64,000 nucleotides of DNA from the NCBI RefSeq assembly GCF_000026545.1, contig NC_011601.1, one strand, 5' to 3'. Source of the stretch: Escherichia coli O127:H6 str. E2348/69 (lineage in GTDB: Bacteria; Pseudomonadota; Gammaproteobacteria; Enterobacterales; Enterobacteriaceae). Made by a program: the position numbers. Shown here one piece after another: positions 54,001 to 57,830 of the stretch. Each line of letters starts with the position of its first letter. The stretch's first letter is position 1.

Positions 54001-57000
54001 CATCGGTACTTTTATCAAAAAACATATATTCTATTAATTATTGCCATCACCTTTTTCTTATTGACAACGTTACTCTGCTGATTGTTAAAATCTAACCTGT
54101 ATTCAGGGTTACGATTCTATACAATAGAACAGGGAGGGGAAAGGATGTCATCGTTAATGAGACTTTTTGTTAATGTCAACAATGCTATGAATTTATTTTA
54201 GAAAAACAATTAAGCTGACGTAGTGTTCCGTCTAAATGACGGGGCGATATTAACATGATTAGAACAAGAGGAATTTTATGTTATCTTCATTAAATGTCCT
54301 TCAATCCAGCTTCAGAGGAAAGACAGCTTTATCAAATAGTACACTTCTCCAGAAAGTTTCTTTTGCTGGAAAAGAATATTCTCTGGAACCTATTGATGAA
54401 AGAACCCCTATTCTTTTTCAGTGGTTTGAAGCAAGGCCAGAGCGATACGAAAAAGGAGAAGTACCAATATTGAATACCAAAGAACATCCGTATTTGAGCA
54501 ATATTATAAATGCTGCAAAAATAGAAAATGAGCGTATAATCGGTGTGCTGGTAGATGGAAATTTTACTTATGAACAAAAAAAGGAATTTCTCAATCTTGA
54601 AAATGAACATCAAAATATAAAAATAATCTACCGAGCAGATGTGGATTTCAGCATGTATGATAAAAAACTATCTGATATTTACCTTGAAAATATCCATAAA
54701 CAAGAATCATACCCTGCCAGTGAGAGGGATAATTATCTGTTAGGCTTATTAAGAGAAGAGTTAAAAAATATCCCAGAAGGTAAGGACTCTTTGATTGAGT
54801 CATATGCAGAAAAAAGAGAACATACTTGGTTTGATTTTTTCAGGAATTTGGCCATATTGAAGGCTGGAAGTTTGTTTACAGAGACGGGAAAAACTGGATG
54901 CCATAACATATCGCCCTGTAGCGGATGTATATATCTTGATGCCGACATGATTATTACCGATAAATTAGGAGTCCTGTATGCTCCTGATGGTATCGCTGTG
55001 CATGTAGATTGTAATGATGAGATAAAAAGTCTTGAAAATGGTGCGATAGTTGTCAATCGTAGTAATCATCCAGCATTACTTGCAGGCCTCGATATTATGA
55101 AGAGTAAAGTTGACGCTCATCCATATTATGATGGTCTAGGAAAGGGTATCAAGCGGCATTTTAACTATTCATCGTTACACAATTATAATGCTTTTTGTGA
55201 TTTTATTGAATTTAAGCATGAAAATATTATACCGAATACCAGTATGTATACCAGCAGTTCATGGTAAGTCTTCCGGTTGTGGTTGAAAAATATCGTTCTT
55301 TAGGTATAGATTCAGATGATTAATCCTGTTACTAATACTCAGGGCGTGTCCCCTATAAATACTAAATATGCTGAACATGTGGTGAAAAATATTTACCCGA
55401 AAATTAAACATGATTACTTTAATGAATCACCCAATATATATGATAAGAAGTATATATCCGGTATAACCAGAGGAGTAGCTGAACTAAAACAGGAAGAATT
55501 TGTTAACGAGAAAGCCAGACGGTTTTCTTATATGAAGACTATGTATTCTGTATGTCCAGAAGCGTTTGAACCTATTTCCAGAAATGAAGCCAGTACACCG
55601 GAAGGAAGCTGGCTAACAGTTATATCCGGAAAACGCCCAATGGGGCAGTTTTCTGTAGATAGTTTATACAATCCTGATTTACATGCATTATGTGAGCTTC
55701 CGGACATTTGTTGTAAGATCTTCCCTAAAGAAAATAATGATTTTTTATACATAGTTGTTGTGTACAGAAATGACAGCCCTCTAGGAGAACAACGGGCAAA
55801 TAGATTTATAGAATTATATAATATAAAAAGAGATATCATGCAGGAATTAAATTATGAGTTACCAGAGTTAAAGGCAGTAAAATCTGAAATGATTATCGCA
55901 CGTGAAATGGGAGAAATCTTTAGCTACATGCCTGGGGAAATAGACAGTTATATGAAATACATAAATAATAAACTTTCTAAAATTGAGTAGAGAAGCTCAG
56001 CCACTTGTGTAGGGGGGCTAAAATTAATTCTATTTCATTATATGAGAACACCAATAAGAATAATAATATTTGATCACAACTGAAGATGCTTTTTACAATG
56101 AAGAATTATTGTTAAAAAACGCTTTGTTGAATCAACCGAACTGTTGCTGAGTTGCAGGATCACATCACGTATTTTCCTGAAAACGCAGGCTGCTTAGTAG
56201 CAAAGCAGAAGTTCAAAATCACCAACTAAATAGCTGCGCCGAATAGTAGATCAATGAAAGGGAACTCAGCCCGGATTGTGCGATCTGATCAATCGCCAAA
56301 AATCCCCCCCTAACCGGACTGAGCGATGCCGATCATAGCACCAATTCCCCGCGACGAATGACGCCTGATGCAAAAAGCAATCTATAAAACTCACGATAAA
56401 AATTATGCCCGCAGGCTGACCGCCATGCTGATGCTGCACCGGAGCGCTCGCGTCAGTGACGTTGCCAGAACGCTCTGCTGCGCCCGTTCCTCCGTCAGGC
56501 GCTGGATTAACTGGTTCACGCTGTCGAGTGTTGAAGGTCTGAAATCATTACCCGCAGGACGTTCCCGCCGCTGGCCGTTTGAGCATATCTGCACATTGTT
56601 TCGTGAACTGATAAAACACTCTCCCGGATATTTTGGCTATCAGCGTTCACGCTGGAGTACAGAACTGCTGGCAATAAAAATCAACGAGATAACCGAGTGC
56701 CAGTTACATGCCGGAACCGTTCGCCGCTGGTTGCCATTAGTCGGGCTTGTGTGGCGCAGGGCTGCGCCAACCCTGCGTACCCGTAACCCGCATAAAGCAG
56801 CAATTCACAAAGCACTGGACGAATGTAGTGCGGAGCATCCGGTCTTTTATGAAGATGAAGTGTATATCTATCTTAATCCCAAAACCGGTGCGGACTGGCA
56901 ACTTCGCAGACAGCAAAAACATGTGGTAACACCGGGGCAGAATGAAAAATACTATCTGGCTGGTGCTTTACATAGTGGAACGGGCAAAGTCAGCTATGTG

Positions 57001-57830
57001 GGTGGCAACAGCAAAAGCTCAGCCTTATTTATCAGTCTGTTGAAACATCTGAAATTGACATACCGACGGGATAAACCTATCACGCTCATAGTGGACAACT
57101 ACATCATCCATAAAAGTCGGGAAACACAGCGCTGGCTGAAAGAAAATCCGAAGTTCAGAGTGATTTATCAGCCAGTTTACTCGCCGTGGGTGAATCATGT
57201 TGAGCGGTTATAGCAGGCGCTTCACGATACGATAACGCGCAATCATCAGTGCCGTTCAATGTGGTAACTGCTTAAAAATGTTCATTATTTTATGGAAACC
57301 GTGAGCCCATTCCCCGGTGGTAAATATGGGCTGTTAAAAGTGTAGCGGTATTCGGCGCAGCTATTTAGGATGGTCAGGTCGCAGAAGTTCTGTGCCACTA
57401 CAGTGCGTGTACTAAACAAAATGACGAGGGCACGAATGTCATAATACGTGCGTATTACCTGACAGTAGCTACCAACTGAGGGGGCTTATTCCAAACCTGA
57501 TTTATTCAACAAAGCTGGACTTATCCTTACTCTGAATTATTTTCCAGACATATGCATCATGTACTGGCTCGCTTGGTTCAGGAAATACAGGAGCAAATCT
57601 ACAGCTATTAGATTTATTCCTATTTGTATGCAAAGTCGCATTGCATAATGCGGAGCTATGTTACAGATACGCCTGACGTGCGTAGTAAAATTATAAAGCA
57701 ACATATATATACAAGGAGAAACCGAGAAAAATAAATGAGTCGTATGTTGGGTAGCATCGAGATAAATATTTTTTTATCACATTAGCACCTTGGTTAAGGG
57801 TGTTAATAATAATATTCTCTCACTTATTAA

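Follow-up and report, generated by a model that had tools for sequence, protein, structure and literature searches.

The OI-122-type island and its nested insertion sequence

The window analyzed here is a 64,000-nucleotide stretch of Escherichia coli O127:H6 str. E2348/69 (NC_011601.1). From pgk it extends past tRNA-Phe (42615-42690) and into an OI-122-type pathogenicity island, which is integrated at this tRNA gene (pheV). The island contains, in order, an integrase, insertion sequence (IS) debris, espL2, nleB (54278-55267), nleE (55316-55990), a nested IS structure and efa1/lifA, which starts at 57865. The nested structure (56120-57516) lies in the nleE-efa1/lifA intergenic region. When the window is aligned to the O157:H7 strain FRIK804, the backbone, which is of non-O157 type, is only 96-98.5% identical; the island part reaches ~99.5% identity, and all 1397 bp of the nested structure are 100% identical. 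FORC 064, a strain with full-length efa1, matches the window at 99.9% over the 9.4 kb compared, and the efa1/lifA region of the window is colinear with that gene up to position 61516, within the stretch compared.

An earlier note had proposed that an IS630-type element of ~1.14 kb lies inside IS903-like ends at 56120-57516. Alignments to IS903B and IS630 confirm this anatomy and place an inner element of 1137 bp at 56229-57365. Two parts of the description need to be narrowed. The inner element, although of the IS630 family, is distinct from IS630 itself (86% nucleotide and 89% amino acid identity), and the IS903-like shell, while retaining both termini, is only a 258-bp stump with 73-86% identity to IS903B.

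The locus itself is already known. It is annotated as an IS630-family pseudogene in RefSeq, for example as EJB16_RS19950 in FRIK804. Public annotation names only this pseudogene in the records that we inspected and leaves the IS903-like arms unannotated; the arms account for ~260 bp of DNA that otherwise appears "intergenic". Published PCR primers for Z4331, an O-island 122 marker from E. coli O157:H7 EDL933, map to 57293-57386 and span the junction between the right end of the inner element and the shell.

The inner element is a defective member of the IS630 family

The inner element lies on the plus strand and measures 1137 bp without its flanking TAs. The TA target duplications can be read from the sequence, the left one at 56227-56228 within C-TA and the right one at 57366-57367 within TA-G. 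Its inverted repeats (56229-56245 and 57349-57365) match perfectly over 17 nt, and when C-TA and TA-G are included, the arms (56226-56245 versus 57349-57368) are perfectly complementary over 20 nt. The same CTA...TAG flanks border all four of the IS630-family copies that we aligned. Duplication of TA and a preference for CTAG have been described for IS630 (PMC2170065 and the Tenzen & Ohtsubo papers cited there). The right TA also aligns to IS903B nt 909-910, and the left CT to nt 107-108. Because both flanks still align to IS903B, the flanking nucleotides would be target DNA, as in a simple insertion.

We searched protein profiles with a conceptual translation of the transposase in which the stops had been repaired. 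This protein scores 222 bits against NF033545, "IS630 family transposase" (cut-off 100), and 72 bits against PF13358 (DDE_3), and also matches HTH_23 and HTH_29. By its ends and its reconstructed protein, the inner element is a defective member of the IS630 family (IS630/Tc1/mariner).

Three nonsense codons and a deletion disrupt the transposase gene

The transposase pseudogene occupies 56326-57345 on the plus strand, with 339 codons between the ATG at 56326 and the natural stop at 57343-57345. Three nonsense codons interrupt it: TGA at 56359-56361 (codon 12; CGA in IS630), TAG at 57211-57213 (codon 296; TGG in relatives) and TAA at 57265-57267 (codon 314; CAA in relatives). Each is a single C:G>T:A transition. 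Between 56796 and 56797, 12 bp have been lost in frame, and with them the residues DEKM; the reading frame contains no frameshifts. The earlier note had seen the TAG and TAA and read them as Trp and Gln codons altered by one transition each, which the TGG and CAA codons of IS630, the E. coli D1 plasmid element and a chimera on plasmid p542099_1 bear out. Its count of two nonsense codons fell short, missing the TGA at 56359-56361 as well as the 12-bp deletion. Intact relatives do not end at the TAG; they are 343 aa long and continue for ~47 codons beyond 57211-57213.

The longest open stretch (56368-57213) encodes 281 aa, from Met15 to Leu295. Codons for the putative D,D35E triad, assigned by alignment to the family motifs, are all kept: D177 (YEDEV), D257 (IVDNY) and E293 (NHVERL), the second D and the E being separated by 35 residues. 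Only two more codons follow E293 before the frame is cut off. In RefSeq/PGAP, the pseudogene starts at Met15 (56368) and covers the equivalent of 56368-57345, under the label "IS630 family transposase, internal stop". The TGA at codon 12 alone may have left the gene functional, because the ATG at 56368 (Met15) precedes the HTH domain. A single uninterrupted ORF of ~343 aa is nevertheless absent, and the element is not autonomous. Unable to move alone, it could at most be mobilized in trans by a related transposase, which is conceivable because its inverted repeats are intact.

The inner element is a diverged lineage of its own

Over its full length, the element is 85.9% identical in nucleotide sequence to IS630 of Shigella sonnei pSS_046 (NC_007385.1, 51121-52276), and it is 86.8% identical to an intact E. 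coli plasmid element. Its repaired protein is 89% identical to an intact 343-aa IS630 transposase. Among 5.8 billion (5.8e9) protein clusters, no intact relative reached at least 90% amino acid identity. The best full-length homologues in these clusters are 343 aa long and 88% identical, and the only 100% match is a 262-aa fragment. At the DNA level, the best plasmid match is the p542099_1 chimera, at 95.2%.

In a three-taxon comparison of the window copy, IS630 and the intact plasmid element, private substitutions number 86 on the window branch versus 51 and 46 on the other two. On the window branch, 51 changes are GC>AT and 26 are AT>GC, a 2:1 excess. Non-synonymous and synonymous changes number ~29 and 46 there, compared to ~11/42 and ~11/35 on the other branches, a ratio about twice as high. 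Most of the divergence would nonetheless predate inactivation, because the overall dN/dS between the element and IS630 is only 0.10. We conclude that the element represents a separate, extinct-looking IS lineage, known only from this dead copy and recombinants derived from it.

The outer arms belong to the IS903 group

IS903 and IS903B belong to the IS903 group of the IS5 family; they are 1057 bp long, with 18-bp inverted repeats, and duplicate 9 bp of target. As the IS903B reference, we used the copy on plasmid pXH993. The left arm of the shell (56120-56228, plus strand) consists of a degenerate terminal inverted repeat and the first ~25 transposase codons, and ends in the target C-TA (56226-56228). 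IS903B nt 2-108 aligns to 56121-56227 with 86% identity and no gaps (E 9e-31), and a tblastn search with residues 1-25 of the IS903B transposase gives 72% identity at 56152-56226. The right arm (57368-57516, plus strand) holds what is left of the transposase gene's 3' end, decayed by indels and an internal stop, followed by the right terminal inverted repeat. It aligns to IS903B nt 909-1056 over 57366-57515 with 73% identity and small indels (E 4e-16). Both flanks thus align well to IS903 termini, as the nested reading had supposed. The two terminal repeats match IS903B unequally: the right one is identical to the reverse complement of IS903B nt 2-18 at 17 of 17 positions, and the left one differs from the 18-nt IS903B repeat, GGCTTTGTTGAATAAATC, at three (nt 1, 13 and 16).

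Without the inner element and one TA, the shell is 258 bp long and colinear with IS903B nt 1-108 plus 909-1057. An interior of ~800 bp is gone, and with it almost all of the transposase gene; we found no other IS903-like coding sequence near the shell. The reconstituted junction, ...TCACCAACTAGGATGGTCAGG..., joins IS903B-equivalent nt ~108 to ~909 and has CTAG within it. In IS903B, the trinucleotide ACT occurs at both 106-108 and 907-909. No 9-bp target duplication surrounds the shell, whose flanks are gttaaaaaa and ggacttatc. Homology of both arms to IS903 termini places the shell in the IS903 group of the IS5 family, as something less than a full-length element. It would come from a member of the group other than IS903B, because its identity to IS903B is only 73-86%.

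We looked for relatives of the shell that lack the insertion. The E. coli genomes and plasmid collection gave only IS903B-type matches at 73-86% identity as candidates for an uninterrupted shell or its parent. With 258 bp, both inverted repeats and no transposase gene, the shell has the structure of a MITE (miniature inverted-repeat element) derived from IS903, but it shows no sign of mobilization in the form of several dispersed copies: no uninterrupted copy was present in 5,426 E. coli genomes. None of 100,044 species representatives contained a 24-mer specific to the left arm, and the junction pattern was absent from these and a metagenome collection; these scans recorded exact matches, which diverged shell copies may escape. 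A 21-mer scan of metagenomes returned 11 matches, nine of them copies or variants of this island locus. The other two (L016 and L018) are chance matches with no further homology. A possible parallel on pSS_046, where IS630 adjoins a gene labeled "ISSfl7 IS5-like", was set aside: that sequence is unlike both IS903B and the shell.

A second, different IS903-like left end lies at 53837-53903, 2.3 kb upstream of the shell. The left-type end at 53837 and the right-type end at 57516 are correctly oriented around nleB-nleE; of the upstream copy, just a 66-bp stump remains. The 9-bp flanks of this 53837-57516 bracket are unlike (acgcagaca versus ggacttatc). The two ends may once have formed a composite transposon that delivered nleB-nleE.

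The structure is a fixed scar of the island

Copies at at least 99% identity occur in 559 E. coli records; a larger set of 900 records at at least 80% coverage includes other IS630-family elements that cover 82% of the query. Every copy that we examined has identical lesions, with the three stops and the 12-bp deletion: O157:H7 FRIK804, FORC 064, 25-06685, CAU16175 and six metagenome contigs. A German clinical isolate and a swine isolate are among the sources of these copies. The exact 281-aa ORF is preceded by nleB-nleE and followed by efa1/lifA at 10 of the 10 places listed (25 contigs read). With the same neighbors at all inspected exact-ORF sites, we saw no movement of the window-type element. 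An empty site, in which the nleE flank is joined directly to the efa1 flank, was found in none of the 5,426 E. coli genomes. O157 matches at 62% coverage were considered as empty sites and rejected, as they reflect a BLAST extension of 43 nt into the right end of the shell, worth ~2 bits and at chance level. The extension follows a weak similarity of that end to the left flank (repeat D2), 71% over 34 nt. We conclude that the OI-122-type island carries the nested structure as a fixed scar, common to O157 and non-O157 EHEC/EPEC.

Across eight island copies, four sites are polymorphic in the 1137 bp of the inner element, compared to 38 in the remaining 3386 bp of the region. Such low polymorphism is unlike that of a freely decaying pseudogene, though the numbers are small.

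In several lineages, the island has breaks or crossovers inside the element. In RM9872-C1, which lacks efa1, homology stops at window position 57000, where an IS3-family element adjoins. In SMN197SH3, it stops at 56811 and is followed by espF of the LEE. One metagenome contig (L017) crosses over ~210 bp after the start of the element into a third IS630-family lineage and has a new right flank. The p542099_1 chimera is of window type over its first ~820 bp, where it has both the TGA and the 12-bp deletion, and is IS630 from there on. This chimera occupies an unrelated CTAG site, with pINV-like ORFs adjacent, and is itself defective. The only present-day role of the element is that of a passive patch of homology, or breakpoint, for rearrangements.

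A proposed two-layer history for the nested structure

We propose that the structure is a two-layer fossil, in which an IS903-group insertion lost its interior, received an IS630-family element and was then left with a decaying transposase gene, and we give this reading a probability of about 0.85. An IS903-group (IS5 family) element would first have inserted between nleE and efa1/lifA. It would then have lost ~801 bp of its interior (IS903B-equivalent nt ~109-909), probably through the 3-bp microhomology ACT, leaving a 258-bp stump with a CTAG in its junction, ...CCAACTAGGATGG.... An IS630-family element would next have inserted by cut-and-paste at the TA of this CTAG, duplicating the TA. Decay of its transposase gene would account for the three nonsense transitions, the 12-bp deletion, and the excess of GC>AT and non-synonymous change, after which the element would have been a passive passenger of the island. 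The anatomy, the lesions, the family assignments, the one conserved genomic context and the lack of empty sites are observed directly. How the deletion arose and in which order the steps took place are what we infer, and deletion followed by insertion is the most economical account. The order has no intermediate to be compared with, because neither an uninterrupted shell nor an empty site nor a close full-length parent was found.

The main competitor explains the deletion by recombination. Two direct IS630-like copies, inserted at CTAG/TA sites near IS903B-equivalent nt 108 and 909, would have recombined with each other, removing the interior of a full-length IS903-like element and leaving one copy between the outer target halves. 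This scheme predicts exactly the C-TA...TA-G flanks that we observe. ACTG at nt 106-109 and CTAC at nt 908-911 of IS903B are each one substitution away from CTAG, and IS630-family copies demonstrably recombine with this element. The scheme requires two insertions and a recombination, however, where one deletion and one insertion suffice, and we found no genome with two IS630-like copies or a full-length shell. We regard it as unlikely, though it deserves more weight than the other alternatives.

The arms could also have separate origins, as the ends of two IS903-group insertions, or of one rearranged insertion, that a later rearrangement brought together. Because the arms diverge unequally from IS903B (86% versus 73%), an origin of the shell from a single element is only probable. 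The missing 9-bp duplication fits separate origins as well, and the extra left end at 53837-53903 points to several IS903-group insertions in the island. Against this, the arms are correctly inverted and colinear with the left and right ends of IS903B, and their junction restores a CTAG target with TA duplication. The right arm also spans the gene's 3' terminus and non-coding DNA with indels, which could explain its higher divergence. On balance, we consider separate origins improbable and retain the two-layer history with a single shell element.

Selection on a surviving product is the least credible reading. Expression and retention of the truncated 281-aa ORF (56368-57213), with its two HTH motifs and DDE core, as a domesticated DNA-binding protein of the nleBE-efa1 module would, if true, explain why the inner element is less polymorphic than the flanking DNA; the ORF is identical across many lineages (759 collection blocks in the index), and the annotation of one genome places a 257-aa "helix-turn-helix domain-containing protein" here. 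We give this idea almost no credence, as the whole island, non-coding parts included, is 99.3-99.9% identical between lineages anyway, several lineages have truncated or recombined the element away with no obvious replacement, its branch has the non-synonymous and GC>AT excess, and a promoter and terminator scan of 55900-57950 gave counts at or below shuffled expectation, lending no support to a regulatory role.

The nested structure is, then, ordinary mobile-element debris, and it leaves the understanding of transposition and of the island's virulence functions unchanged. Outside annotation, its importance is small. The locus is both an existing PCR marker (Z4331) and a point, downstream of nleE, at which the island has been broken or recombined in several lineages. 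Annotators should keep the element apart from IS630 and record three nonsense codons rather than two in its transposase gene.

Comparison with known elements

Of the known systems, IS903B is the counterpart of the shell. Both ends are homologous and colinear, and the right inverted repeat agrees at 17 of 17 positions. The shell differs in lacking ~800 bp and the 9-bp duplication and in the three changes to its left repeat.

IS630 of S. sonnei is the corresponding reference for the inner element. The two share a length class, terminal repeats, a single transposase with HTH and D,D35E motifs, and duplication of TA in CTAG. Their inverted repeats differ, with GCGCCGAATA at both ends of the element here versus GCGCGGAATA and GCGCTTAATA in IS630, and the IS630 transposase is intact, whereas the element here has three nonsense codons and the 12-bp deletion. 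By the ISfinder convention, copies carry the same name at about 95% or more nucleotide and 98% or more amino acid identity. At the identities measured here, the inner element would not qualify as IS630 sensu stricto. Elements called "IS630" in EHEC have also been found to be less than 90% identical to the reference in a comparative survey of EHEC (PMC5567499).

ISEc33 and other 343-aa IS630-family transposases of enterobacteria supply the best full-length protein match, at 88% (cluster "IS630-like element ISEc33 family"). E. coli copies annotated as ISEc33-type are 83-85% identical to the element at the DNA level. These elements occur as multiple intact copies on both plasmids and chromosomes, and they are no closer to the inner element than IS630 is.

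Variants of the nested IS in the island

Between nleE (55316-55990) and efa1/lifA, the window carries a defective IS630-family element (56229-57365) inside the two arms of an IS903-like shell (56120-56228 and 57368-57516). Across window positions 54278-58800 in eight island copies, we counted 4 polymorphic sites in the 1137 bp of the IS630-like pseudogene, where approximately 10.6 would be expected, and 38 in 3386 bp of surrounding genes and spacers, a comparison drawn from a small sample (n = 8). Faster evolution of the effector genes is one possible reason for the low polymorphism of the pseudogene relative to its surroundings. 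In the swine isolate CAU16175, the annotation of nleE gives a pseudogene interrupted by an internal stop (L010:3197-3871), and the nested IS beside it is otherwise conserved.

A variant of the locus lies on the reverse strand of metagenome contig ERZ772991 NODE-341 (L017, approximately 10546-11850). Both nleE and the left arm of the shell are intact, but only the first 210 bp or so of the IS630-like element are of the window type; from there on the sequence is that of a third IS630-family lineage, which is likewise decayed. The right arm of the shell is absent; the sequence that takes its place as right flank is presumably an IS2-type terminus, which it resembles. Two isolates from cattle match the window only as far as a point inside the IS630-like element, which is 57000 in RM9872-C1 (L023) and 56811 in SMN197SH3 (L024). 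An IS3-family element follows the end of homology in one of these isolates, while in the other unrelated DNA of about 0.6 kb separates the end of homology from espF of the LEE. This latter junction is a mosaic of OI-122 and LEE.

Related sequences elsewhere

The E. coli plasmid p542099_1 (CP091385.1; L003:3001-4140) contains a chimeric IS630-family element. Its first 820 bp or so match the window-type pseudogene with a single mismatch, and they share its codon-12 stop (TGA) and its 12-bp in-frame deletion; the remainder is identical to IS630. The chimera has CTA...TAG on either side, and msbB2/virK-like ORFs adjoin the site. The window-type left half is therefore present outside the island, and the chimera may have originated by gene conversion or by trans-mobilisation.

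In E. coli O157:H7 chromosomes, two places per record match the nested IS, the OI-122 copy and one more. Matches from the plasmid collection, mostly Klebsiella, include many unannotated stretches in which the two ends of IS903B are only a short distance apart; most span approximately 356 bp, and one spans 268 bp. They resemble IS903B derivatives with an internal deletion, and all of them may represent one single locus in related plasmids.

Within the window itself, the segment 53837-54037 includes another IS903-like left end (53837-53903), distinct from that of the shell: it is 91% identical to IS903B nt 1-58 and 83% identical to the shell's left arm. An IS1 fragment adjoins it, and nleB (54278-55267) begins shortly downstream. 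Together, this left end at 53837 and the right end at 57516, whose 9-bp flanks differ (acgcagaca versus ggacttatc), lie on either side of nleB-nleE, arranged as the ends of a composite transposon would be.
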